Shown here in pieces: positions 3,166 to 52,758 of a stretch of DNA of 64,000 bases. Origin of the DNA: Firmicutes bacterium CAG:321_26_22 (GTDB taxonomy: Bacteria; Bacillota_I; Bacilli_A; RF39; UBA660). Within the stretch, counting starts at the first letter, position 1. Each line of letters begins with the position of its first letter. The notes beneath the pieces were generated by a model. It saw only the letters and a program-made list of their open reading frames with translations, had not been told where the DNA came from and did not search any database. A program made the position numbers and the translations under genes. Location of the stretch: assembly GCA_001916775.1 (NCBI GenBank), contig MNTB01000034.1, forward strand, positions 3,478 through 67,477, read 5' to 3'.

Positions 3166-3603
3166 TTATTGTACTATTAAATTATTATTTTGTAAAGAAT
3201 TTAATTTAGATAGCCAAAAATAATCCATATTTTTAAAATCACAGACAAATAAATTGTTATTATAATTATTTATATCATTAAAGAAAATACTATAGTTATT
3301 TTCTGTTTCTATCTTAATATTATAATTATTTATTCTTAAAATACTCTTATCAGTTGTATTTAAATAATGAATATTATCTTTTCTCTTATATCCATATTTA
3401 TATTTATATTCATTATAAATATATTCATTTAACATTATCTTATTAAAAGGATTTGCTATTTCTTCTAATACATGATAGGCTTTAATACTATTATAATCTC
3501 TAGAATAATATATTTCCTCAAATATTTTATACATCTTAAAAGGTTTATCTTTATACATATAACTATAATATTTATTAACATTAAAAATATAGTATGTTCT
3601 CAT
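3166..3603 (-). CDS. hypothetical Tyr/Asn-rich protein
   Basis: 145-aa ORF with strong low-complexity Y/N/K composition; no recognisable motif. Confidence 0.35.
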   Translation of the reverse strand: MRTYYIFNVNKYYSYMYKDKPFKMYKIFEEIYYSRDYNSIKAYHVLEEIANPFNKIMLNEYIYNEYKYKYGYKRKDNIHYLNTTDKSILRINNYNIKIETENNYSIFFNDINNYNNNLFVCDFKNMDYFWLSKLNSLQNNNLIVQ

Positions 3604-3653: not shown

Positions 3654-5654
3654 TTATAAATTATTCTTTATTTTTATTACTAAATCAGTCATATCTAATT
3701 CAAAGAAATTTAATACTTCTTTTTCACTACCACTCTTACCAAAGGTTGGTATGTTAACAAAATCTTCATCAGATGAGATAAAGCGATACCAATTGGCATC
3801 ATTTGATAATTCTATAACCATACGACGATATCCTGTTGGTAAGACCTGCTCCTGATAATCTTTGTCTTGTTTTAGGAATAAATTCATATTGGGCATTGAT
3901 ACTACTCTGGCTTCAATATAATTCTTTAGTAATTCTTCTTTTATATTAACCGCTAATTCTACTTCACTACCTGTTGCTATTATTACTAAATCTAATCTTG
4001 TTCTTACTTCGCTAATTACGTAACCACCACGCGCTACTTTATTTGGATTAGTGTATTTCATTGTGTTGTTATGACCACGAGGTAATATTAAGGCTGATGG
4101 TTTACCTTCTCTTAGAATATTTGTCCAAGAACCCATTAGTTCTTTATAATCAGCAGGTCTATATACTGATAAATTAGGTATACTTCTTAAGGCTCCTAGT
4201 TGTTCTACTGGCTCGTGAGTTGGTCCATCCTCTCCTACTCTAACACTATCATGAGTAAAGATATATGTTACTGGTAAGTTCATCATGGCACTCATTCTAA
4301 TAGATGGTTTCATATAATCAGAAAAGGCTAAGAATGTACTTCCATAACTACGAATATTAGTTAAGGCTAAACCATTTAAGACCGCTCCCATAAGATTCTC
4401 TCTAACACCAAAGTTAATATTACGACCAGAATAATCATCTACTGAAAACTCATTCTTTCCTTTTAGATATGTCTTAGTACTACAGAATAAATCAGCTGAA
4501 CCTCCCATAAAGTTTGGTATAAAGGTACTAATAACATTCATTATTTGATAATTTATATCACGCATTGCTTTATCTTCAAATATCTTACTAGTATCAATAA
4601 CTGCTGCTATATCAAGAGATATTTTTTCATTTTCTATTACTAAATTTATTTTATCTCTTTCACTATCAGTAGCATTAGCTATATACATTTCATATTCAGA
4701 ATACCAATTGCGATAATAATCTTCAGTTCCATCTTTAATAAACTTCATAGCATTATTTCTGTCATTTTCACTATAGGTAAAGGCTGGTCCTCCTTTTAAT
4801 TTTGTTCTTATTTCTTCTAAGTCTTCTTTTTCTAAATTAGAATGAATACGATTAGTTCCTTCATACTTAGAATATATACCTAGGGTTGTTTTTATTTCTA
4901 TTAATACTGGTTTCTTACTCTTTTTGGCTTTTTCGATAGCATTAGATATTTCACCAATATTTTCGCCATCTTTTACTTTAATTACTTCCCAGTTCATTGA
5001 AGCAAATCTATCAGGAATATTTTCATACATAGCTTTATCTAAATCACCATCAGCAGTTACACCATTGGAGTCATATAGAACAATTAAATTATCTAAGCCT
5101 AGATTGCCCGCTAGGGAAGCTGCTTCATAAGATATTCCTTCCATTAGGTCACCATCAGATACTAAGGTATATATCTTATAGTCAAAGACAATGTTTTTCT
5201 TTTTATTAAAGGTGCTTTCTAAATATTTTTCACCAATAGCTAATCCTACTGATGTAGCAAAGCCTTCTCCTAATGGACCTGTTGTTACTTCAATACGATT
5301 GTTTAAATTATATTCAGGATGACCAGTACACTGAGAATTTATTTTACGAAAGTTTTTTAATTCTTCTAGATTAAATTCATCTAATAAATAATATAATGTA
5401 CTATATAATAAGGCTGAACCATGACCTGCACTTAATACAAATCTATCTCTATTACACCATGCTTTTCTTTCTAAATCAAATTTTAGGTGATATGCAAATA
5501 GTGTATATAGTGTGGGAGCAGCATCTAGAGCTATTCCTGGATGACCAGATCCCGCTGCATTTATCATATCTAATGCTAATAATCTTATATCATTTACAAT
5601 TCTTTTTTCATTTAGTTTCATATTTCTACCTACCTTATAATTTAATTCTATCAT
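3654..5654 (-). CDS. tkt: transketolase
   Basis: LDMINAAGSGHPG TPP-binding motif and a 666-aa length typical of Tkt. The true start may be the internal MKLNEK. Confidence 0.9.
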   Translation of the reverse strand: MIELNYKVGRNMKLNEKRIVNDIRLLALDMINAAGSGHPGIALDAAPTLYTLFAYHLKFDLERKAWCNRDRFVLSAGHGSALLYSTLYYLLDEFNLEELKNFRKINSQCTGHPEYNLNNRIEVTTGPLGEGFATSVGLAIGEKYLESTFNKKKNIVFDYKIYTLVSDGDLMEGISYEAASLAGNLGLDNLIVLYDSNGVTADGDLDKAMYENIPDRFASMNWEVIKVKDGENIGEISNAIEKAKKSKKPVLIEIKTTLGIYSKYEGTNRIHSNLEKEDLEEIRTKLKGGPAFTYSENDRNNAMKFIKDGTEDYYRNWYSEYEMYIANATDSERDKINLVIENEKISLDIAAVIDTSKIFEDKAMRDINYQIMNVISTFIPNFMGGSADLFCSTKTYLKGKNEFSVDDYSGRNINFGVRENLMGAVLNGLALTNIRSYGSTFLAFSDYMKPSIRMSAMMNLPVTYIFTHDSVRVGEDGPTHEPVEQLGALRSIPNLSVYRPADYKELMGSWTNILREGKPSALILPRGHNNTMKYTNPNKVARGGYVISEVRTRLDLVIIATGSEVELAVNIKEELLKNYIEARVVSMPNMNLFLKQDKDYQEQVLPTGYRRMVIELSNDANWYRFISSDEDFVNIPTFGKSGSEKEVLNFFELDMTDLVIKIKNNL

Positions 5655-7727: not shown

Positions 7728-9125
7728 TTATTTATTAATTTTATAAGTAGTTCCTTCTCTTGTATCAATTAATTCTATACCTTTAGTTAATAGTTCATCT
7801 CTAATAGCATCTGATAAAGCATAATCTTTATTTTGTTTAGCTATTTTTCTTTCTTCTATTTTATCTTGAATATATTTTTCTAGTTCTGAATCTATATTAT
7901 TATCTTCTTTAATTAAGTCAAGGCTTAATATTTTATCAAAGTCTTCAATTAAATATCTTTTTGTAGTACCATTTACGGTATCATCTTTTATTAAATCATA
8001 TAGTATTGTTATACTATTAGCGGTATTTAAGTCATTAGATAATTCTTCTTTAAATCTATCTTGATATTCTTTTACTTTATCTTCTTGGAGACTACCTTCT
8101 TCTTTAATTAAAGATATCTTATTTATTAATTTATTATATTGATTTTGTACTTGTTCTAAAACAGAATATGAGAAGACTAATTGTTTACGATAATGACTTA
8201 ATAAACACATAAATCTAAAGGCTAATGGATTATAACCATTTTCTTTTAAAACACTTACTGATAAGACTGCTCCTTTACTCTTACTCATTTTACCTGATTC
8301 ATCCATAAGATGTTCATTATGAAACCAATAATTACACCATTTATGTCCTAGATATGCTTCACTTTGAGCTATTTCATTAGTATGATGTGGGAAGATATTA
8401 TCTACTCCTCCACCATGAATATCAAGATGTTCACCAAGATATTTTAAACTAATTCCGGTACATTCTATATGCCAACCGGGATAACCTACTCCAAATGGTG
8501 AATCCCATTTTAAATCTTGATCTTCAAACTTACTCTTAGTAAACCATAGGGCAAAGTCCGCTTGATTTCTCTTATTATCATCAAAGTCTACTCCTTCACG
8601 AACTCCAACGACCATATCATCTTCTTTATGGTTAGTTAATTTATAGTAATCTTCTAATTTACTTACATCAAAGTAAACATTACCTCCGGCTTCATAAGCA
8701 TAACCATCCTCTAGTAACTTGGATATTATTTTAATATATTCATCAATATTATCGGTAGCAGGACTTACTACATCTGGTCTACGACAATTTAACATATCAA
8801 AATCTTTAAAGAAAGCATCAGTATAAAATTTGGCTATATCCATAACTGATTTATGTTCTTTCTTAGCACTAGCTACCATTTTATCTTCACCAGAGTCAGA
8901 GTCACTCTTTAAATGTCCAACATCAGTAATATTCATTACTCTTTTTACATCATAGCCTAAATATCTTAAGGTCTTATCTAAAATATCATGACCTATATAA
9001 TTACGCATATTACCTATATGAGCATAATGATATACTGTTGGGCCACATGTATAGAAACCTACTTTATTACCTTCATATGGTATAAATTCTTCTTTTTGTC
9101 TTGTTAATGTGTTATATAATTTCAT
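7728..9125 (-). CDS. cysS: cysteine--tRNA ligase
   Basis: Class I aaRS HIGH-like (HIGN) and KMSKS (GKMSKSKG) motifs; 465 aa. The zinc-binding Cys context is typical of CysRS. Confidence 0.92.
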   Translation of the reverse strand: MKLYNTLTRQKEEFIPYEGNKVGFYTCGPTVYHYAHIGNMRNYIGHDILDKTLRYLGYDVKRVMNITDVGHLKSDSDSGEDKMVASAKKEHKSVMDIAKFYTDAFFKDFDMLNCRRPDVVSPATDNIDEYIKIISKLLEDGYAYEAGGNVYFDVSKLEDYYKLTNHKEDDMVVGVREGVDFDDNKRNQADFALWFTKSKFEDQDLKWDSPFGVGYPGWHIECTGISLKYLGEHLDIHGGGVDNIFPHHTNEIAQSEAYLGHKWCNYWFHNEHLMDESGKMSKSKGAVLSVSVLKENGYNPLAFRFMCLLSHYRKQLVFSYSVLEQVQNQYNKLINKISLIKEEGSLQEDKVKEYQDRFKEELSNDLNTANSITILYDLIKDDTVNGTTKRYLIEDFDKILSLDLIKEDNNIDSELEKYIQDKIEERKIAKQNKDYALSDAIRDELLTKGIELIDTREGTTYKINK

Positions 9126-9159
9126 TTTAATCCTCCTAATTATTATATTTTTATTTATT

Positions 9160-9191
9160 ATATAAAAGAACTTATCTATTATGATAAGTCC
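9160..9191 (-). terminator. intrinsic terminator in cysS leader (GGACUUAUC-AUAAUA-GAUAAGUUC-UUUUAU)
   Basis: 9-bp stem (8 WC + 1 GU) followed by a U-run on the minus-strand transcript. Lies between the leader ORF and the cysS RBS (TAGGAGG). Confidence 0.5.
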
Positions 9192-9203
9192 TCTTCGTAT
9201 ACT

Positions 9204-9287
9204 TTATTTATCTTGTAAGCATAAGGAAATAGACCTATCATTTAATAGATCTTGACAACACATTTTATTAGTAGTAAGTCTATTCAT
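9204..9287 (-). CDS. putative cysS leader peptide (27 aa: MNRLTTNKMCCQDLLNDRSISLCLQDK) with tandem Cys codons
   Basis: Small ORF with an AGGAAGAG RBS, downstream of promoter TTGACT-17-TAAAAT (9314-9342) and upstream of the terminator. Contains UGU UGU plus UGC codons; segments for alternative hairpins are present. Confidence 0.35.
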   Translation of the reverse strand: MNRLTTNKMCCQDLLNDRSISLCLQDK

Positions 9288-9313
9288 AGTATCTCTTCCT
9301 TTCTTACAATATT

Positions 9314-9342
9314 ATTTTATAATAAATTATTTATTTAGTCAA
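9314..9342 (-). promoter_or_regulatory. sigma-A-type promoter of the cysS leader (TTGACT-17-TAAAAT)
   Basis: rc of 9337-9342 is TTGACT, rc of 9314-9319 is TAAAAT, spacer 17 nt. Confidence 0.5.
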
Positions 9343-9376
9343 TTATTATTTCTTATTCCTGTTAAATAATTCGTAA

Positions 9377-10228
9377 TTAGTTCTTTTTCTTTATTATTTT
9401 TTTATCTTTATTATAATTATATTTTTGATATAATTCTTTCTTACTATCTAAATCAATCATTGGAGCATCTTTTACTAAAACTACAAAAGCAGATGTAGCA
9501 TAGTTTTCTTTAAATGTTCTATATAGACTTTTTTCTATATAATAATTATCTTCTTCTTCATATTCATTTCCTATATATTTAAATATTATGTTACCAGTAT
9601 ATACTTCAGGATTAGGAAAGGTATAATCTTCATTTAGTTCTTCTTCGGTAATATAATAACCACTTTGATAATTATAATTAGTAAGCATATATCTATCTAG
9701 ATTATAATATTTATCTAGTACTTTTAGTATAGTATCATTATTAATATGTTTTCTTCTTACATAAGATAATATTTTCCATACTGTAAAAGTTGGCATTTTC
9801 TTTAAATGCATATTCTTTTGTCTTTGATACTCTAAAGCATTTATTATATTATTAAATGCTTCTAGGTAGACTTGATTATTCTTTACGGCTTCAATATGTC
9901 TATATAGGTCTGTCTCCTCCAAAGGAAGATCTCCTAGTATAAAGTCTTCATATAATTCTACTATTTCTGGATTAACATCTTTAAATAAATAATATTTATA
10001 TGTACTTTCATTCATGTTTTTAATAACATTTTCAAGACTATCTACTATTTGTTTATTTGTTTTTGTTTTATCATATGGTGACTTTTCGTATTTTCTTTTT
10101 ATTTTTTCTAACTCTTGTTTTCTTTTATTTGGTTTATCCTCCACTATATTAATACACATGGCAAGTATTAATTCTTTATTTTCATATAAATAACTATATC
10201 TTCTTATTAATTCTTCTTTAATGTCCAT
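9377..10228 (-). CDS. hypothetical protein
   Basis: 283-aa ORF, K/E/Y-rich, with no recognisable motif. Confidence 0.4.
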   Translation of the reverse strand: MDIKEELIRRYSYLYENKELILAMCINIVEDKPNKRKQELEKIKRKYEKSPYDKTKTNKQIVDSLENVIKNMNESTYKYYLFKDVNPEIVELYEDFILGDLPLEETDLYRHIEAVKNNQVYLEAFNNIINALEYQRQKNMHLKKMPTFTVWKILSYVRRKHINNDTILKVLDKYYNLDRYMLTNYNYQSGYYITEEELNEDYTFPNPEVYTGNIIFKYIGNEYEEEDNYYIEKSLYRTFKENYATSAFVVLVKDAPMIDLDSKKELYQKYNYNKDKKIIKKKN

Positions 10229-10395: not shown

Positions 10396-11478
10396 TTACT
10401 TATTTTGTAATAATTCATTTAAATATTCATTATCAGAAAAGTAGTTTAGTTTCATTGCTTCTTTTACTTCTTCTAATGTTTTATTGGCTTTATTAGATGC
10501 CTTGGTGGTACCTTCCTTTAAAATATTATATACTTCTTCAATGTTATTAGCATATTTTTTTCTTCTTTCTCTGATAGGAGTTAATTCATCGTTTATTACT
10601 TCAGTTAGGAATTTTTTTATGGTAACATCTCCTATTCCACCTTTTTGATAGGCTTTTTTTAAGGATTCTAAGTTTTGAAACTCTGGATAATACTTTTGAA
10701 AATGGGTATCAGTACAAAAGGCTTCTAAATAAATGAAGAGAATATTGTCTTTAAGTATTCCTGGTTCTTCTACTTTTCTAGATGTTGTTTTTATACTAAA
10801 TATTTTTTCTTTTATTATTTCTTTTTCATCAGATAAATAAATACAATTATTTAACGATTTACTCATCTTAGTATTTCCATCGGTGCCTACAAGTCTTCTT
10901 TGATAAATATTATCAGGTAATATTGATGTACATTCTTGTAAGACATTAGTTTTATATATTCGATTAAATGCTCTTACTATTTCTCTTGTTTGTTCAATCA
11001 TAGGTTCTTGATCATCTCCTACTGGTATTATATTAGCTTTGAAGGCTGTTATATCAGCGGCTTGACTTATTGGATATGCTGTAAAACCTACGGGAATGCT
11101 ATCTTTGAATTTTTTGGCGTTTAATTCACTTTTTACTGTAGGATTTCTAAATAGTCTATTTATTGTTACTAGATTCATGTAATAGTAGGTTAATTCTGTT
11201 AAGGCACTTACTCCTGATTGAACAAAGAATGTTACTTTACTTGGATCTAGGCCTACTGCCAAATAATCAAGCATTACTTCTATTACATTTTTTCTTACTT
11301 TATCTGGATTATCAAAATTATCAGTTAAAGCTTGTGAATCCGCTATCATAATATAAAATTCATCATAATTCCCTTCTTCTTGTAATTTATATCTTCTTTT
11401 TAAAGACCCAACATAATGTCCTATATGTAATCTACCTGTTGGTCTATCTCCTGTTAAAATTATATTTTTCATTTTCAT
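10396..11478 (-). CDS. trpS: tryptophan--tRNA ligase
   Basis: TGDRPTGRLHIGHYVGSL (HIGH) and KMSKS motifs; 360 aa as typical for TrpRS. Confidence 0.92.
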   Translation of the reverse strand: MKMKNIILTGDRPTGRLHIGHYVGSLKRRYKLQEEGNYDEFYIMIADSQALTDNFDNPDKVRKNVIEVMLDYLAVGLDPSKVTFFVQSGVSALTELTYYYMNLVTINRLFRNPTVKSELNAKKFKDSIPVGFTAYPISQAADITAFKANIIPVGDDQEPMIEQTREIVRAFNRIYKTNVLQECTSILPDNIYQRRLVGTDGNTKMSKSLNNCIYLSDEKEIIKEKIFSIKTTSRKVEEPGILKDNILFIYLEAFCTDTHFQKYYPEFQNLESLKKAYQKGGIGDVTIKKFLTEVINDELTPIRERRKKYANNIEEVYNILKEGTTKASNKANKTLEEVKEAMKLNYFSDNEYLNELLQNK

Positions 11479-11563
11479 CTTCCTCTCTTTCTATATTTAT
11501 AAATTATTTAATTAAACACCACCGTTTACTTAATATACTCATAACAACCTCCTATTAAATATA

Positions 11564-11594
11564 CAAAAAAGACCTACCTAATAAAGATAAGTCT
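11564..11594 (-). terminator. intrinsic terminator in trpS leader (AGACUUAUC-UUUAUUA-GGUAGGUCU-UUUUUU)
   Basis: 9-bp stem (7 WC + 2 GU) plus U6 on the minus transcript, positioned between the leader ORF and the trpS RBS. Confidence 0.5.
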
Positions 11595-11624
11595 ATAAAT
11601 TACATTAATAATATTTATATTAAT

Positions 11625-11705
11625 TTAATTCCACGAGTAAATAGACTTATCTTCAAATAAGTCTAGCCAGCTATTTAATTTAACTAAAACTATATTTATT
11701 TTCAT
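11625..11705 (-). CDS. putative trpS leader peptide (26 aa: MKINIVLVKLNSWLDLFEDKSIYSWN) with two Trp codons
   Basis: AGAGGAG RBS 7 nt before the ATG, downstream of promoter TTGACA-17-TAAAAT (11731-11759). Segments 1-4 can form 1:2, 2:3 and 3:4 alternative hairpins. UGG at codons 13 and 25. Confidence 0.4.
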   Translation of the reverse strand: MKINIVLVKLNSWLDLFEDKSIYSWN

Positions 11706-11730
11706 AGTCTATCTCCTCTTTCTTATCTAG

Positions 11731-11759
11731 ATTTTAGTACTTTTTTATTACTTTGTCAA
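11731..11759 (-). promoter_or_regulatory. sigma-A-type promoter of the trpS leader; the same ~29-bp promoter block is repeated at 12848-12873 upstream of the methyltransferase gene
   Basis: TTGACA (rc 11754-11759) - 17 nt - TAAAAT (rc 11731-11736). Block ttttattactttgtcaatatttttatttt is duplicated at 12846-12874. Confidence 0.5.
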
Positions 11760-11842
11760 TATTTTTATTTTATCTTTTGATTTATCTTGTCAATTTCTTT
11801 TTTTAAATGTTACATTGTTAAATAATCTTAACATATTTATGT

Positions 11843-12610
11843 TTACTTTCTAGCATATATTCCATAGTATCTTCTTACTAATCTTATGCCACTAGGATAT
11901 GTATTTCTTTCAATATATTTATTTAATTTTTCTTCATCTAACTTGCTTTGATAGTGATCCTTGATATCACCTTGTTCTTCAGAAAAATCATCAATGATTG
12001 GAACTTTTAAGAGAAAATTATATAAGCTTTCTCTTGTTTTAAAGTATTCTCTAACATGGATTGGTATTAGTTCAACATCTTTGAAACCTGCTGATATGAT
12101 ATTTTCATAATCTATTATACTTATTGGTTTGGTATCTTTGAAAGCTTGACCTTTACCAAAGATTAGTTTCAGTTCATAGCAGTCATATTTATCTACTCCG
12201 TGAACTAGTAAATGACCATCTTCTTTTAGAAAGTAATATATTTGTTTAGCATCTATAGGAGTGTTTCTGGCCACTACTACGTCATAATATTTATCTGGAA
12301 CATCCATTAATAAATTATCCATTACTTTAAAAGTTATATTCTTACGTCCACTTTGTAATAAGTTCTCTTTAGCAGTCTTTATCATTGCTTCTGAATAATC
12401 TGTTCCTAGTATTTCTGAGACTTCGGGAAAATATTTTAATAGTTTTTCTCCACCACCTGTACCTAAGTCTAGTATTCTTGAATTTTTATTTGTTATTTTT
12501 CTTAGAATACTATATAGATCCCAATTTGTTAATTTTTCACTTATTATGTTAAAAGTACTGAAATCCCAATTTTTTATTTCTTCATAATATTTTTGCTCAT
12601 TTATTTTCAT
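11843..12610 (-). CDS. class I SAM-dependent methyltransferase
   Basis: Motif I ILDLGTGGGEKLL and an acidic motif-II region; 255 aa. Confidence 0.75.
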   Translation of the reverse strand: MKINEQKYYEEIKNWDFSTFNIISEKLTNWDLYSILRKITNKNSRILDLGTGGGEKLLKYFPEVSEILGTDYSEAMIKTAKENLLQSGRKNITFKVMDNLLMDVPDKYYDVVVARNTPIDAKQIYYFLKEDGHLLVHGVDKYDCYELKLIFGKGQAFKDTKPISIIDYENIISAGFKDVELIPIHVREYFKTRESLYNFLLKVPIIDDFSEEQGDIKDHYQSKLDEEKLNKYIERNTYPSGIRLVRRYYGIYARK

Positions 12611-24445: not shown

Positions 24446-25858
24446 CTATTTATTATAGTCTTCTTTAGTCTTCTCTACAATTTCTTTTAAATATTTACTA
24501 GTATAAGTACAACCACTAATAGTATCTAGATTATCTAGATTATTTTGATTATTAATAATTTTATTTAAATAATCATTACTATATATCATATTAGTATAAG
24601 TTTCATGACTACTAATTACTTCAATATTAGAAATATTATTATTAGTAAAGATAATCTTTAATTTTATACTACCTTTACCAGCATATCCCATACCTTTAAC
24701 TTTATATGTAGTAGTAGTCCCATTCTTAACCTTAGATAATATTTCATAAGTATCATCTAATGGCTTAGTAATTATATTCTTACCTATTACAAAAGAAGAT
24801 ATAATACATAGAAGAATAAAACCAATTAATATAATATTACTTATATTCTTTTTATCATATAATTTAACACTTAATTTATTAATAAATATAGTAATAATAT
24901 TAACTATAAGTATCGATATAAGTACTCCTTCTGGTAAAGGTGTTAAATATCTAATACCCATAGTAATAATACCCATAAGTATACCACTTATTACTTGTCC
25001 TCTTCTTGTAATAGGAGTAGTTACTGGATCAGTAGCCATAAATACTGCTCCAAAAAGTAAGCCACCACTAAGTATATTAAATAGAATAAACCATATACCT
25101 ATACCTTTAGTTAAACAAATAATAATACTAATAATAGTTACACTACCAATATAACTAGTAGGTATTCTCCATTTAATTATTTTTTTATAAGTCAAATATA
25201 TAAAAGCAATAATACAAAGTAAACTACAAGTCTCTCCAATAGCTCCTGGTATATTACCAAATAAAAAGTTAAATAAACTACCATATGGTTTAACTAAATT
25301 ATCATAAGTAACTAAGTATCCACTAGCGGTCATATTAGTAAGAGGAGTAGCACTACTTACTACATCTACTTCATAAGGATTAAGATAACCACCAGTTAGT
25401 GATGAAAAGATAACTGTAATAAATAAACTACCTACTAAAGCAGGATTTAATTTATTTTTACCTAAACCTCCCATTAATACTTTAGATAAACTAGCTATAA
25501 TACTTCCTATTATTACTAACCATATAGGAGTATTAATAGGAATAATAAGTGATAAAAATACCCCAGGTATAATAGCATAACTTTCACTAAATAACTTATA
25601 AAAACTTCTTTTATCCTTCTTAATATAATAATATAAATATTCAGTAACAATACAAAATAAACTAGCTACTGAAGCAAATATAAGTGGTTTAAATACTAAA
25701 TATAAATTACCATAACCTTTTATAATTGGATAAATACCATTCTTATATGTAGAAAATATAATAAATGGAATTAAAACAACTAATATAGTATACATCATAT
25801 TAGAAGTACTATTACTACTCTTTAGAAAGTTACCACTTCTTACTTTAAATTCTTTCAT
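24446..25858 (-). CDS. rnfDG: RnfD-RnfG fusion protein (Rnf/Nqr-type membrane subunit D fused to FMN-binding domain)
   Basis: RnfD motifs GGLGKNKLNPALVGS, FMATDPVTTP, PEGVLISILIVN. C-terminal FMN_bind-like LDTISGCTYTS. Start overlaps the rnfC stop. Confidence 0.7.
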   Translation of the reverse strand: MKEFKVRSGNFLKSSNSTSNMMYTILVVLIPFIIFSTYKNGIYPIIKGYGNLYLVFKPLIFASVASLFCIVTEYLYYYIKKDKRSFYKLFSESYAIIPGVFLSLIIPINTPIWLVIIGSIIASLSKVLMGGLGKNKLNPALVGSLFITVIFSSLTGGYLNPYEVDVVSSATPLTNMTASGYLVTYDNLVKPYGSLFNFLFGNIPGAIGETCSLLCIIAFIYLTYKKIIKWRIPTSYIGSVTIISIIICLTKGIGIWFILFNILSGGLLFGAVFMATDPVTTPITRRGQVISGILMGIITMGIRYLTPLPEGVLISILIVNIITIFINKLSVKLYDKKNISNIILIGFILLCIISSFVIGKNIITKPLDDTYEILSKVKNGTTTTYKVKGMGYAGKGSIKLKIIFTNNNISNIEVISSHETYTNMIYSNDYLNKIINNQNNLDNLDTISGCTYTSKYLKEIVEKTKEDYNK

Positions 25859-27114
25859 TTATGATTCACCTTCTCTTTAGCAATATTAACAAATTCTCTA
25901 ACTTCTATTTTAGAAGGACAAATATAACTACATAATGAGCATCCTATACATTTGTTACATTTAAGTTTCTTTAAATTATCTATATTATCAATATTTTCCA
26001 TAATAAGTACTGGCATAATATTAGCAGGACATACCATCGTACATTTACCACATTTAATACAAGGTAAATTTTTTTCAAAATGATCTTCCATTATAATAAT
26101 AGAAGTAACATCTTTAGTAATAACAACATCATCACAAGGCATACTCTTACCCATCATTGGTCCTCCAACAATAAAGAGAGGATTCTTTATATTTTTATAT
26201 CCATCTAAATTACTAATAATATCACTAGCTAAAGCTCCTATTTTAACTTTAACATTTTTCTTTTTCTTAATACCAGGACCAGTTATAGTAATAACTCTCT
26301 CAGTAAGAGGTCTATTATATTTAAACATTTCATATATAGCATATATAGTAGAAACATTATTAACAATAATACCTTTTTCACTAGGATATTTATCATATTC
26401 TATACCAAGAGTATTTCTAACTACTAGTCTTTCCCAACCATTAGGAAAAGCATCCTCTACTAATCTTAAACTAATATTAGGATAAGTCTTAATATATTTA
26501 TTAAACATTCTAATTGATTTAATATCATTACTTTTAACAGCTATAATAGCTCTAGGTATCTTTACTATTTCTAATATATTATCAATAGCCTCTAATATAG
26601 AATCAGCATAATTAGCCATAACTGCTTTATCACAAGAAACAAATGGTTCACATTCTACACCATTAACAATTAAACATCTAATATTATCCATACTATACTT
26701 TAAAAAAGTAGGATAATCAGCTCCTCCAAGTCCTGATATACCATTATCTCTTAAATCATTAATAAATGTTTCTTTTGTATAACTATTGATATCTTTACTT
26801 TTTAATTTACTTTTCTCATATTTTTCTTTGAAATCATTTTCGACAACAATACATTTTATTTTCTTACCATTACTAATCATTTTATTAGTACCACAAATGG
26901 CATAACCGGATACTGAACTATGTACTGGGAAATTGTTATCTTTATTGATGGCTACAGTCATTCCTTTATAGATGTAGTCTCCCTCTTTTACTAGATACTT
27001 ATATGTTGTACCACTTTTATTTTCTAGTGGTATATAAACAAGTTCTGGTTTAGTATATAATTCTATATTATAATCTATTTTATCATTACTACTAATTCTT
27101 ACTGGTTTATTCAT
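25855..27114 (-). CDS. rnfC: RnfC-like electron transport complex subunit C (SLBB + 2x[4Fe-4S] ferredoxin domains)
   Basis: GISGLGGADYPTFLK (GxGGAxFP-type nucleotide-binding motif) and two CxxCxxCxxxCP clusters (CIKCGKCTMVCP; CNKCIGCSLCSYICP). Confidence 0.75.
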   Translation of the reverse strand: MNKPVRISSNDKIDYNIELYTKPELVYIPLENKSGTTYKYLVKEGDYIYKGMTVAINKDNNFPVHSSVSGYAICGTNKMISNGKKIKCIVVENDFKEKYEKSKLKSKDINSYTKETFINDLRDNGISGLGGADYPTFLKYSMDNIRCLIVNGVECEPFVSCDKAVMANYADSILEAIDNILEIVKIPRAIIAVKSNDIKSIRMFNKYIKTYPNISLRLVEDAFPNGWERLVVRNTLGIEYDKYPSEKGIIVNNVSTIYAIYEMFKYNRPLTERVITITGPGIKKKKNVKVKIGALASDIISNLDGYKNIKNPLFIVGGPMMGKSMPCDDVVITKDVTSIIIMEDHFEKNLPCIKCGKCTMVCPANIMPVLIMENIDNIDNLKKLKCNKCIGCSLCSYICPSKIEVREFVNIAKEKVNHK

Positions 27115-27179: not shown

Positions 27180-27262
27180 TTTCATGAAATGCCAAGGTCA
27201 TTTCATGTCTTCTCTAGCCTTATGTTAAGTCTACAGAAGATGTCTCAGTAGACCTATCATAT
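27180..27262. repeat. dispersed intergenic element (CATGAAATG hairpin + CTAGCCTTATGTTAAGTCTAC + GACCTATCATAT), copy 2 of 3
   Basis: ttcatgaaatgccaaggtcatttcatgtc..ctagccttatgttaagtcta..gtagacctatcatat. Confidence 0.6.
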
Positions 27263-27312
27263 ATAAGTTAAAGAGCAAAATGAAAAGAACTAGTTCAAAT
27301 AAACTAATTCTT

Positions 27313-30733: not shown

Positions 30734-32437
30734 TTAAAATTTTTCTGCAATATTTTTATCTATAAAACTTAAACTTTTAACTGATAAGTCTAGTGATTCT
30801 TTATATTTTCCTCTTTTGAATAACTCTTCTGCTTTATTAAGGGCTATATCTATTTCCTCATAACTACTTCTATAACGATTACCATAAATTATAATTTTTT
30901 CAGACATACTAGCAATCTTAATCATATCATTAGTCTTATTATATATTTTAAAAACCAAATCTCTAGCAGTATCTACCCTTATATTAAGTATCTTAATAAC
31001 AATTGGTTTTCTATCTAATTCCTTAATAATTTCTCTAATAGCATCTTGAGCCTCAGTAAGTTCAATATAATAACTACTAGGTATTACTGGTATTTTATAA
31101 TCTTTTAGTCTATATTTAGCTTTCTTAAGTAAGTTTTCAATCGTAGCAAGCTGTTCTCTTGCTCTTGTTTCATCATCTTTCATACTAGTAATTGATCTAA
31201 GTTGAAAATCCAAATCATCTTGTAATCTAGATAACTTAAGTGATAAACCATTTAATTCATCTACTAATTTAGAATAAGCAAATGTTTTCATTTTACCCTG
31301 ATCAACTAATATTTTATAATCTTGATTAATTTTTTCTAAATTCTTATTAAGAATACTAAATTTATTAATATCTTCATCAGATAAATTATAATTATATTTA
31401 ATATCATCTATCTGAAGATAAATATCTCTAACAACTTTATTAATATTATCTATCTTATAACTAAAATCTTTAATATTTTGTCTAAATAAATCCTTACATT
31501 CTTTTTCTTTATCAAAATCATTATATAATTCATTAAAATATTCAATAAAAGTTTTTAATTCTATTATAGATTCTCCTAATTCTAATTTCTTTAAATTTTC
31601 CATAATATTATCTATCTTATTTTTTATTTCTTTAATATTATATTCAACATTTAAATAATCAAGTGGATAACCATCTCTTTTCATACGATAATAGTAGGTT
31701 ATAGCTTCATCAATTTTATTTGGTACTAATACAGTAGCCATTAATACTATTGTAGGAATATCTTCAAGTAATTTACCTAATTTAGTTATTTTATCATCAA
31801 GTAAATTTATTTTCTTCTCTACTGATACATAATCATTATTATCCATAGCTTTCTCAAACTTAGCAAATAAATCATCAATATTATCTATTTCTTTTTCTAA
31901 ATAATCCGCTATTACACCATATTCTTTTTTTGATCTTTCAAATTTATTTTGATCTTCACGATATACTATTTTTAATTTAGTAATAAGAGCTCTATTTCTT
32001 TCTTCTGAATTAGTAATTAATTTAACTTCTTCAAGTAAATGATCTGTTTTCTTTTTCAAAGAATTTATTTCTATTTCAATATTTGTAATCTTTTTAACTG
32101 CTTGTTTATAATCTTTTCTATCAATCAAAAAATCAGCTTCTGATATTAAATCAGTAAGTTCAGGTATCTTTTCATCTCTAATTGTAGTAAAAGTATTATC
32201 CCAATCATCTAATTTATTTTTTAAATTATCTGTTTTTATAAGTTCTTTAACTTTAGTTATTTCACTAAGTACAGGTACTCCTATTAAATTATTTTTTCTT
32301 ATATCTAGTTCTTCTATTTCCTTTTTATACTTCTTATTCTGATTTCTTTTTATAATAACAATCGTAACTATAATAAGTATTACAGCCAATATAAAGGCAG
32401 ATATTGTAATTAAAAGAACACTATCCATTAATATCAC
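30734..32437 (-). CDS. ezrA: septation ring formation regulator EzrA
   Basis: Single N-terminal TM followed by a ~540-aa coiled-coil/spectrin-like region; the 567-aa size and architecture are typical of EzrA. Confidence 0.8.
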   Translation of the reverse strand: MILMDSVLLITISAFILAVILIIVTIVIIKRNQNKKYKKEIEELDIRKNNLIGVPVLSEITKVKELIKTDNLKNKLDDWDNTFTTIRDEKIPELTDLISEADFLIDRKDYKQAVKKITNIEIEINSLKKKTDHLLEEVKLITNSEERNRALITKLKIVYREDQNKFERSKKEYGVIADYLEKEIDNIDDLFAKFEKAMDNNDYVSVEKKINLLDDKITKLGKLLEDIPTIVLMATVLVPNKIDEAITYYYRMKRDGYPLDYLNVEYNIKEIKNKIDNIMENLKKLELGESIIELKTFIEYFNELYNDFDKEKECKDLFRQNIKDFSYKIDNINKVVRDIYLQIDDIKYNYNLSDEDINKFSILNKNLEKINQDYKILVDQGKMKTFAYSKLVDELNGLSLKLSRLQDDLDFQLRSITSMKDDETRAREQLATIENLLKKAKYRLKDYKIPVIPSSYYIELTEAQDAIREIIKELDRKPIVIKILNIRVDTARDLVFKIYNKTNDMIKIASMSEKIIIYGNRYRSSYEEIDIALNKAEELFKRGKYKESLDLSVKSLSFIDKNIAEKF

Positions 32438-32579
32438 CTTTCCTACTCATAATATATTCTACCACATTTTTTTATATTTTAAAATTGTTTTTGTAATAAA
32501 AATATTTTTTTTTAAAAAGTGTATATAAAAATCAAATATAAATATTGATATTTTTATAACTTTTTAGTATAATGTATAC

Positions 32580-32682
32580 AGGAAGAGAAATTTATCCATA
32601 ATAAAAATGGGTAACACCTAGTTCCAAAAGGTGTTCTCTCCGTAAGTAGATTACGAAGCACCCCCCTGTGGTGCTTCTTTTG
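32580..32682 (+). ncRNA. candidate type I antitoxin sRNA (convergent to and overlapping the 3' UTR of the small toxin ORF)
   Basis: Promoter TTGATA (32545-32550) - 17 nt - TATAAT (32568-32573). Hairpins AACACC..GGUGUU and CGUAA..UUACG, and terminator GAAGCACC-CCCCUGU-GGUGCUUC-UUUUG ending 2 nt before the toxin stop codon. No ORF. Confidence 0.4.
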
Positions 32683-52681: not shown

Positions 52682-52758
52682 GTCCTCGTAGCTCAGTAGG
52701 ATAGAGCAATTGCCTCCTAAGCAATAGGTCGCTAGTTCGATTCTAGTCGAGGACGCCA
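52682..52758 (+). tRNA. tRNA-Arg (anticodon CCT), 3' CCA encoded
   Basis: Manual cloverleaf: acceptor GUCCUCG/CGAGGAC, D-arm GCUC-AGUAGGAUA-GAGC, anticodon arm AUUGC-CUCCUAA-GCAAU (anticodon CCU), T-arm GCUAG-UUCGAUU-CUAGU, then GCCA. Followed by an 11-bp terminator hairpin (52763-52795). Confidence 0.85.

Follow-up and report, generated by a model that had tools for sequence, protein, structure and literature searches.

How is charging of tRNA-Trp sensed upstream of a synthetase gene of a low-GC Firmicute when the T-box found there in related bacteria is missing? The question is raised by the window analyzed here (the whole stretch of 64,000 nucleotides, positions 3,478 to 67,477 of contig MNTB01000034.1 from Firmicutes bacterium CAG:321_26_22), which carries on its minus strand a tryptophanyl-tRNA synthetase (TrpRS) gene, here called trpS2, preceded by a leader with a short open reading frame (ORF1). 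The source organism is an uncultured gut "Bacilli" with a GC content of ~26%, encoding EzrA, PcsB and a Mur ligase according to Pfam searches with the window proteins. T-boxes are regarded as the near-universal control of aminoacyl-tRNA synthetase (aaRS) genes in Firmicutes, and this locus departs from that. From sequence comparison and modeled RNA folds we consider it likely that a ribosome-mediated leader-peptide attenuator ties the expression of trpS2, as an auxiliary gene, to the supply of charged tRNA-Trp. We report the computed anatomy and conservation of the leader, its alternative pairings, the absence of a T-box, the codon-swapped paralogy with a second leader upstream of cysS, and the duplication and dispensability of the regulated gene.

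Anatomy of the trpS2 leader

The elements of the leader and the gene behind it are listed in the order of transcription; SD denotes a Shine-Dalgarno sequence.

11731..11759, minus strand: sigma-70-type promoter TTGACA-17-TAAAAT, 11 of 12 positions matching
11713..11719, minus strand: SD AGAGGAG of ORF1
11706..11712, minus strand: segment 0, AUAGACU, between the SD and the ORF1 AUG, complementary to segment 2 (located with a repeat finder)
11625..11705, minus strand: leader ORF1, 26 codons, MKINIVLVKLNSWLDLFEDKSIYSWN
11669..11667, minus strand: ORF1 putative sensor site 1, UGG codon 13
11657..11665, minus strand: segment 1, UAGACUUAU, at +4..+12 from the first base of UGG-13
11641..11653, minus strand: segment 2, AAGAUAAGUCUAU, at +16..+28 from the first base of UGG-13, with segments 1, 0 or 3 as partners
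11633..11631, minus strand: ORF1 putative sensor site 2, UGG codon 25
11598..11630, minus strand: A-U-rich middle hairpin between segments 2 and 3 (13 nt, 92%)
11584..11596, minus strand: segment 3, AUAGACUUAUCUU, the 3' antiterminator strand and also the 5' terminator arm
11565..11594, minus strand: intrinsic terminator 3:4, AGACUUAUC-loop-GGUAGGUCU plus U-run (hairpin 11594..11570, U's to 11565)
11553..11548, minus strand: SD AGGAGG of ORF2
11504..11542, minus strand: ORF2, 12 codons, MSILSKRWCLIK, with UGG at 11521..11519
~11487..11479, minus strand: SD of trpS2, GAGAGGAAG
10396..11472, minus strand: trpS2, the regulated gene, a 358-residue tryptophan--tRNA ligase (TIGR00233, 239.7 bits)

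An initial annotation, made from the letters of this stretch, had described a promoter, a ribosome binding site (RBS) AGAGGAG, a 26-codon ORF with two UGG codons and a terminator, and each of these was found at its noted position on the minus strand. Its element list proved correct and at the same time incomplete, since ORF2, segment 0 and the status of this trpS gene as a second copy had been overlooked.

The promoter is the top-scoring of 19 promoter-like sites in a 2.6-kb region, where the number of such sites is not above that in shuffled sequences; its -35 and -10 hexamers are unchanged in 9 related loci. The terminator is one of two terminator-like sites in the same region, against 0.6 expected, and has a free energy of -10.9 kcal/mol. 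In a joint alignment of 10 leaders of the trpS and cysS types, used for pairing and covariation, 98.9% of the terminator cells are paired, with 1 compensatory pair (A-U/G-C).

ORF1 as a probable translated sensor

Conservation of ORF1 was assessed in 9 related loci and in 37 metagenome stretches, returned by a scan whose pattern included neither UGG codon; together they gave 15 distinct combinations of ORF1 and ORF2 peptides. Every relative with a trpS2-type leader retains ORF1, its RBS, its AUG and both UGG codons, as do, for the two codons, all metagenome stretches that span the region. The conservation of the leader ORF and its Trp codons on which the initial annotation had made its reading depend is therefore present in both samples. 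A purine-rich SD lies 7-9 nt 5' of the AUG in all variants, frame 0 is free of stops in all of them while the other two frames contain 2-9, and two independent 3-nt indels leave ORF1 in frame. The N-terminal 12 codons diverge freely (MKINIVLVKLNS, MRTSMTMVKLNS, MNKLFNLVNLNS, MNKLSLVIVKNNS), and despite this the site-1 UGG is codon 13 or 14 throughout; the Ser codon preceding site 2 shows a synonymous change (UCG/UCA). With Trp at 0.50% of the codons in the long ORFs of the window, the probability of at least two in 26 codons is 0.008.

The placement of the first Trp codon fits a ribosomal switch. With a footprint of ~-15 to +13, a ribosome at UGG-13 would mask segment 1 (+4..+12) and leave segment 2 (+16..+28) free.

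Competing helices and modeled folds

Three mutually exclusive structures, 1:2, 2:3 and 3:4, had been proposed for the leader. They were recovered with the repeat finder and are maintained in relatives, and a further helix with segment 0 was added:

11665..11657 with 11650..11642, minus strand: helix 1:2 (anti-antiterminator), 9 nt, perfect
11653..11641 with 11596..11584, minus strand: helix 2:3 (antiterminator), 13 nt, perfect
11718..11706 with 11647..11635, minus strand: helix 0:2, 13 nt, 85%, overlapping the ORF1 SD and the spacer before the AUG

Helix 2:3 is perfect as claimed and extends over 13 nt rather than the 10 bp originally given. When the 301-nt leader was dinucleotide-shuffled 300 times, a perfect inverted repeat of at least 13 nt appeared in 3 cases. 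Across the 10 aligned leaders, 95% of the cells of helices 1:2 and 3:4 are paired, against 30-49% in slid controls, and the corresponding figures for 2:3 are 89% and 31-48%. Two-sided changes occur in 2 pairs, U-A to C-G in helix 1:2 and A-U to G-C at the terminator base.

The three alternative folds, for which the initial annotation had suggested structure prediction, were modeled. Energies computed for seven leaders are -5 to -10 kcal/mol for 1:2, -10 to -12 for 3:4 and -16 to -24 for 2:3, and by this model the competing 1:2, 3:4 and 2:3 states are predicted to be balanced in energy. Segment 0 is unchanged in all variants and pairs in the unconstrained minimum-free-energy (MFE) fold, the naked leader RNA being predicted to form 0:2, the middle hairpin and the terminator. 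The middle hairpin stacks on 2:3, and its 5' arm begins at the site-2 codon and the stop codon; its sequence is not conserved in the L083, L002 and L253-type alleles, and it is absent from the cysS leader described below.

A simulated ribosome was then placed on seven leader alleles. Located at UGG-13, it shifts the MFE fold to 2:3 in three of them (the window, L002 and L116). The terminator is retained in all seven with the ribosome at codon 25 and in six of seven with the ribosome at the stop codon.

A paralogous leader upstream of cysS

The best evidence that codon identity determines specificity comes from a second leader, a paralogue of the first, which lies 2 kb downstream on the same strand:

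9160..9342, minus strand: cysS leader, whole
9342..9314, minus strand: promoter TTGACT-17-TAAAAT, then RBS
9287..9204, minus strand: cysS leader ORF, 27 codons, MNRLTTNKMCCQDLLNDRSISLCLQDK
9260..9255, minus strand: putative site 1, UGU-UGU
9252..9245, minus strand: segment 1, +5..+12 from the second UGU
9238..9231, minus strand: segment 2
9221..9219, minus strand: putative site 2, UGC
9191..9168, minus strand: terminator, then UUUUAUAU
7728..9125, minus strand: cysS

The two leaders are 78% identical end to end (z=5.8) and have the four-segment architecture in common, and codons 2-4 of the cysS leader ORF hold an element equivalent to segment 0. In the alignment, AGC-UGG of the trpS2 leader (codons 12-13) stands opposite UGU-UGU of the cysS leader (codons 10-11), UGG-25 stands opposite UGC-23, and in either leader the two sites are 36 nt apart. 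The cysS leaders of relatives keep Cys-Cys at site 1 and have UGC or, synonymously, UGU (as in L002) at site 2. Trp and Cys are the two rarest residues in the long ORFs of the window, at 0.5% and 0.9%, and the probability of at least three Cys in 27 codons is 0.002. No T-box was found in the cysS leader (9090..9400), where Rfam gave only chance matches at E<=10.

In both leaders the sensor codons thus correspond to the amino acid of the gene behind them, with only two specificities available for the comparison. Since the RNA scaffold is essentially shared and the rare codons follow the regulated gene, a codon read by the ribosome is the most economical determinant of specificity. The combination of a shared scaffold with swapped codons argues, on the alignment, against a ligand aptamer, a shared protein site or tRNA binding as the source of specificity.

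One cysS leader among the relatives, in L047 (the complete metagenome-assembled genome CP091726.1, ~4200..4260), has an extra T in a T-run, which creates a UAG stop after Cys-Cys-Phe, inside segment 1 (MSRFNTNNKCCF*). This frameshift may be genuine, giving a truncated natural variant, or may stem from an assembly error in the homopolymer.

T-box relatives and the origin of the leader

The statement that the leader is not a T-box was checked with the Rfam covariance model RF00230, which gave no match at the gathering score in the 64-kb window and none at E<=10 on 11380..11900 (a 521-nt query). Other Rfam families matched the trpS2 leader at E<=10 only as two viral elements with E values of 3-7, that is, by chance, and Trp_leader, the proteobacterial trpL family, did not match it. 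In relatives the same scan is positive, with a UGG specifier, so the original statement holds. The loci divide by TrpRS identity to the window gene:

TrpRS 79-99% identical (L001, L002, L047, L083, L085-L087, L091): leader as in the window
TrpRS 73-74% identical (L081, L082): no leader
TrpRS 59-69% identical (L003-L009, L011, L080): T-box with a GAA-UGG-R specifier

The T-boxes of the nine relatives in the last group score 60-92 bits (E 1e-10 to 7e-19), just below the curated 93-bit cut-off. Their detection means that the scan works on this lineage and that the absence in the window is real.

Local alignment of the window leader with the T-box leaders is significant only over the terminator, ORF2 and the RBS, with scores of 45-46 against a shuffle maximum of 36-40. 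A relic T-box upstream of the terminator was looked for and rejected, there being no significant alignment with the T-box leaders in that part. Homology confined to the stretch from terminator to RBS suggests that the tRNA-sensing domain was replaced and the expression platform kept; the cassette appears to be a lineage-specific replacement of the T-box of the relatives, of which only the terminator, ORF2 and the RBS would have been inherited.

The new part may have arisen from the old one. The 9-mer UAGACUUAU occurs twice, 70 nt apart, as located by the repeat finder, and the 1:2 hairpin has the look of a terminator hairpin duplicated in tandem, a resemblance seen in the L002 sequences TTAGACTTATTTAAGGATAGGTCTATTT and ATAGACTTATCTTAATAAAGATAGGTCTTTTTT. 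If a hairpin is duplicated in this way, the 1:2 / 2:3 / 3:4 topology arises automatically. In L083 cysS lies directly 3' of trpS, which is consistent with local copying of the whole leader, and the cysS leader is best read from the alignment as a sister copy, probably retargeted by changes of the sensor codons. More tentatively, and with confidence a little short of even, we propose that this clade evolved a portable, codon-programmable cassette that displaced aaRS T-boxes. It would have formed on the inherited T-box terminator, apparently through duplication of the terminator hairpin, with later copying to a neighboring synthetase gene and retargeting between Trp and Cys by single-base UGG<->UGY changes at the two sensor codons, and site 2 and the K-R-W core of ORF2 (see below) would add sensing layers. 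Such layers would be, for example, stabilization of the mRNA by a stalled ribosome or translational gating. A replacement of a T-box by a leader peptide in which the intermediate parts are visible, as the common terminator, ORF2 and RBS, together with paralogous leaders apparently reprogrammed by point changes in codons, would offer a compact model of how amino-acid sensors turn over and are retargeted.

More distant relatives have a leaderless trpS, and T-boxes above the gathering score lie 2.5-3.5 kb downstream of it (L010 6014..6190, L012 6540..6712, L014 4923..5098, L016 5365..5536); these presumably regulate another gene.

Proposed mechanism

The leader combines a conserved ORF with its RBS, a codon placement that would mask segment 1, and a terminator with a mutually exclusive antiterminator and anti-antiterminator, which are the features of an attenuator. 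We infer the stalling, the direction of regulation and the timing as follows. The transcript would begin ~7 nt downstream of the -10 box, and ORF1 would be loaded with a ribosome. With plentiful Trp-tRNA the ribosome would pass segments 1 and 2 and reach the stop codon. Segment 2 would by then be occupied, by the ribosome itself or by renewed pairing with segment 1 or 0, so that segments 3 and 4 could pair and RNA polymerase would terminate at the U-run (11565). With scarce Trp-tRNA the ribosome would wait with UGG-13 in its A site, covering segment 1 only, so that segments 2 and 3 could form the 13-bp antiterminator stacked on the middle hairpin, no terminator would form, and transcription would proceed into ORF2 and trpS2. 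The 0:2 pairing probably locks leaders that are untranslated, or on which the decision has already been taken, in the terminating fold, and probably also stops further initiation at ORF1.

The proposal of the initial annotation that a leader-peptide attenuator acts here is supported by the conservation of ORF1 and of the helices, and by the Cys codons in the paralogous cysS leader. Several observations weigh against it, and they are collected here. In four of the seven alleles a single stalled ribosome is not enough in the model, 0:2 and the terminator being preferred unless segment 0 is also blocked; in these alleles segment 0 would have to be occupied by a queued or initiating second ribosome. 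With the ribosome at the stop codon, the allele of the window itself is the one that folds into the 2:3 antiterminator and not the terminator, so the prediction for the replete state rests there on re-pairing of 1:2 or on a steric argument. Covariation is thin, at 2 compensatory pairs, and 71 of 500 shuffles reach the covariation score of 2:3; the trpS2-type leaders all belong to a single narrow clade, with TrpRS identities of at least 79%, in which most positions are invariant. UGG and UGY are one base apart and the neighboring bases have diverged, which makes the site-2 swap modest evidence, with an estimated neutral chance of ~0.05-0.25. Site 1, with its single Trp codon, is a weaker sensor than a classical leader with codons in tandem. 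Finally, the RNA polymerase of Firmicutes is often said to outrun the ribosomes, which makes tight coupling harder; antibiotic-sensing leader-peptide attenuators do work in Bacillus.

The second cognate codon is a difficulty of its own. The trpL-like logic that had been claimed for the leader is borne out at the first UGG, where a stall would mask segment 1, and fails at the second. A ribosome stalled at site 2 covers 8 of 10 segment-2 bases, and folding then predicts termination, the wrong direction. In the usual kinetic model the lead ribosome reaches site 1 first, so that site 2 should not affect the decision; site 2 is nonetheless cognate in both the trpS and the cysS leader families, with identical spacing. 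It is conserved and at the same time without explanation in a simple attenuation model. Three ways in which site 2 might act, by pairing of segments 1 and 4, by a partial 2:3 helix behind the ribosome or in pausing, do not fit the geometry. Ribosomes stalled near the 5' end of erm leaders stabilize the mRNA, and a comparable stabilization of the readthrough mRNA by a 5'-stalled ribosome is a speculative role for site 2.

Alternative readings

The anatomy of a short ORF with alternative hairpins and a terminator is also that of the Firmicute attenuators that sense antibiotics, and any stall at codons 11-14 would lead to the same fold. The leader might therefore respond to translation stress at large, such as ribosome-targeting antibiotics in the manner of ermK or vmlR, with the Trp codons incidental; that trpS2 is auxiliary and strain-variable, as resistance genes often are, would agree with this. 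We regard it as unlikely, because the regulated genes encode aaRSs and the rare critical codon matches the amino acid of the gene in both leaders, Trp and Cys being the two rarest residues here (0.5% and 0.9%). The repeats draw attention to another kind of control: UAGACU is present in three direct copies (segments 0, 1 and 3) and two inverted ones, and the UAGACU/AGUCUA elements are nearly invariant and occur in the leaders of both trpS and cysS. The choice between 2:3 and 3:4 could thus be made, in a TRAP-, PyrR- or LicT-like manner, by an RNA-binding protein or a small RNA acting in trans, and ORF1 would not be the sensor. The mutual pairing of the segments accounts fully for these repeats, however, and the (G/U)AG triplets that a TRAP leader needs in nine to eleven copies spaced 2-3 nt apart do not form a run of at least five anywhere in 11480..11780. 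One shared protein site could not give Trp-specific control in one leader and Cys-specific control in the other, where the sensor codons differ, and the survival of the ORF1 frame, RBS and start through indels speaks against it as well. This possibility seems still less probable to us than a response to translation stress.

The occurrence of a T-box at the same position in relatives suggests one more candidate, a degenerate or minimal T-box binding uncharged tRNA-Trp, with UGG-13 as specifier or "UAGCUGGC" as the relic of a UGGN bulge. Judged by eye, "UAGYUGGC" around codon 13 resembles the T-box core "UAGGUGGC" of the relatives, and "AUUUACUC" after segment 2 recurs in the antiterminator region of L007 and L008. 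Against these resemblances, RF00230 gave no match in the 521-nt query at E<=10, and the part 5' of the terminator does not align significantly with T-box leaders. A UGGN bulge complementary to the NCCA end of the tRNA is not present in 2:3, a perfect 13-bp helix; the nearest UGGC, consisting of codon 13 plus one base, lies 5' of helix 1:2, where stabilizing 1:2 would favor termination and the sign would be wrong, and at the equivalent position the cysS paralogue lacks a UGGN. A hidden T-box is accordingly the least credible of these readings, and very improbable. Sensing of Trp-tRNA by a ribosome on ORF1 is the reading that we retain.

The regulated gene

The start of trpS2 was set at the second ATG (11472), as in database homologues. 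Walking out from the window edge, a canonical TrpRS of 327 residues is encountered ~5 kb beyond the window start. The canonical gene is found in two related loci:

L253, 15708..16691: canonical TrpRS (TIGR00233, 352.7 bits)
L252, 15679..16662: canonical TrpRS

The canonical protein is 29% identical to TrpRS2, and its gene has a plain, promoter-like upstream region of 100 nt and no leader. Strain L252 (2373..2957) has lost a methyltransferase gene and the leader together with the first two-thirds of trpS2, and the remaining 3' end adjoins an upstream gene of 244 codons. As trpS2 is mostly deleted in L252, the regulated copy is dispensable, and on this comparison trpS2 is a second, auxiliary TrpRS gene. 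A strain-variable and, by prediction, inducible second TrpRS in a common human-gut organism could matter under Trp limitation or in the presence of TrpRS inhibitors.

An alternative leader allele, with a different middle region and terminator loop, is present in L116 (2722..3262, minus strand) and intact in L253 (1450..1715). In L116 a stand-alone mini-gene resembling the IleRS C terminus (DUF5915) takes the place of trpS2 and is fused to the leader and the beginning of ORF2, which reflects either a rearrangement or a mis-assembly. A possible connection to IleRS was pursued with the L116 C-terminal fragment as query and dropped, as it returned only stand-alone DUF5915 mini-proteins and no full ileS.

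ORF2 between terminator and trpS2

The K-R-W core of ORF2, with its in-frame AUG and SD, is conserved in 11 loci, and its changes fall at third positions (AAA/AAG, CGG/CGA). The core also occurs downstream of the T-box terminators of L004, L080, L007, L008, L019 and L021; ORF2 of L007 has WW and that of L008 has W-R-W. The position of its end relative to trpS differs among the loci. The stop is fused to the trpS SD in L019 and L021 (UAG + GAGGAA), ORF2 overlaps the trpS start in L004 and L080, and in leaders of the window type the stop lies 31-56 nt upstream of the trpS AUG, in the window itself ~13-16 nt before the trpS SD. No conserved structure that would sequester the trpS SD via ORF2 was found, the RNAalifold consensus being only -1.3 kcal/mol. 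From this analysis, a role of ORF2 as a translational sensor of Trp-tRNA is plausible but unproven.

Relation to known systems

The trpS2 leader shares with E. coli trpL and pheM (pheST) the masking of segment 1 by a stalled ribosome, as modeled here, the 1:2, 2:3 and 3:4 helices and the intrinsic terminator, and pheM applies the same attenuation logic to an aaRS operon (pheST is discussed in PMC1262725). It differs from both in having no sequence or Rfam relationship to them, in its one Trp codon at site 1 instead of a tandem run, in an ORF1 that extends across both segment 1 and segment 2 and stops beyond a second cognate codon, in the extra segment 0 over its own initiation region and in its low-GC Firmicute host.

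Among regulated synthetase genes, the closest functional counterpart is in Streptomyces, where an attenuator of trpS/trpRS1 was predicted by Seliverstov et al. 2005 (PMC1262725) and trpRS1 is, as cited in PMC4787780, an auxiliary, attenuated TrpRS (Vecchione & Sello 2010, J Bacteriol 192:3565). As proposed here for trpS2, it is a second TrpRS under attenuation, induced once the main TrpRS fails to keep up with the charging of tRNA-Trp; the host belongs to the high-GC Actinobacteria, an unrelated phylum, and the leader sequence is unrelated as well. The B. subtilis genes thrZ (Putzer et al. 1992, as cited in PMC4787780) and tyrZ are likewise auxiliary aaRS genes induced by low charging, comparable to trpS2 as second, normally silent synthetases switched on by a cis sensor of uncharged cognate tRNA, with the difference that T-boxes are used there.

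Compared with the UGG-specifier T-box of its relatives, the trpS2 leader occupies the same position before the same gene, would respond to the same signal (tRNA-Trp charging) with the same antitermination output, and has a homologous terminator-ORF2-RBS part. Its sensor would be the translating ribosome rather than direct tRNA binding, and it lacks Stem I, the specifier loop and the T-box bulge.

For ORF2 a candidate analogue is the B. subtilis leader peptide rtpLP, which has three consecutive Trp codons and a stop overlapping the downstream SD. ORF2 of the window differs in having one Trp codon and a stop short of the trpS SD. The likeness lies in the arrangement, in which a transcription-level sensor of tRNA-Trp is followed by a Trp-codon mini-ORF just upstream of the gene; the first sensor is a T-box in the rtpA operon, and at trpS a T-box in the relatives or, as proposed, the ORF1 attenuator in the window. 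The rtpLP peptide belongs to the anti-TRAP (rtpA) operon (Chen & Yanofsky 2003, 2004, as cited in PMC10327191).

Leader-peptide attenuation has been predicted in Firmicutes for his operons of the B. cereus group, Peptostreptococcaceae and Erysipelotrichales (Ashniev et al. 2022, PMC9413887), again where the usual T-box or repressor for those genes is lacking; these are biosynthetic operons whose leaders have runs of 3-5 His codons and other sequences. A 2005 survey knew of no Firmicute aaRS gene using classical attenuation (PMC1262725), and we found no later report of leader-peptide attenuation at such a gene in the literature. Judged by their sequences, the trpS2 and cysS leaders appear to form a new family of classical attenuators like trpL and pheM. 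For an aaRS gene of a Firmicute this is unusual, as the initial annotation had anticipated, and it bears on how tightly transcription and translation are coupled in such Firmicutes.

Search for further leaders and other features of the window

A third paralogous leader with another amino acid was found neither in the window, by motif scans and scans for terminators in 5' untranslated regions, nor in ~880 kb of fetched loci or ~40 kb of flanking genome, and Pfam searches with the ten largest other ORFs of the window gave no further aaRS gene. The motif matches at 26481 and 30783 lie within coding sequence and were rejected as paralogous leaders, and the match at 27246 is part of an unrelated intergenic hairpin, upstream of the ORF at 25855..27114. 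The shared core GATAGGTCTATTTNNT matched viral contigs 120 times by chance, and in no case did the terminator arm follow.

Three further features of the window were recorded:

27215..27300, minus strand: strong hairpin and U-run, then hairpins (GGUCUAC...GUAGACU; CAUGAAAUGACCUUGGCAUUUCAUG), without an Rfam match
32560..32640, minus strand: G+C-rich stretch with two overlapping terminator-like hairpins, without an Rfam match
52682..52755, plus strand: tRNA with anticodon CCU (Arg)

The hairpins at 27215..27300 sit in a 170-nt region upstream of the ORF at 25855..27114 and are possibly another leader or the terminator of the upstream gene. The stretch at 32560..32640 lies 170-190 nt upstream of an ezrA-like gene (30734..32437). 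The tRNA is the only Rfam match in the window at the gathering score.

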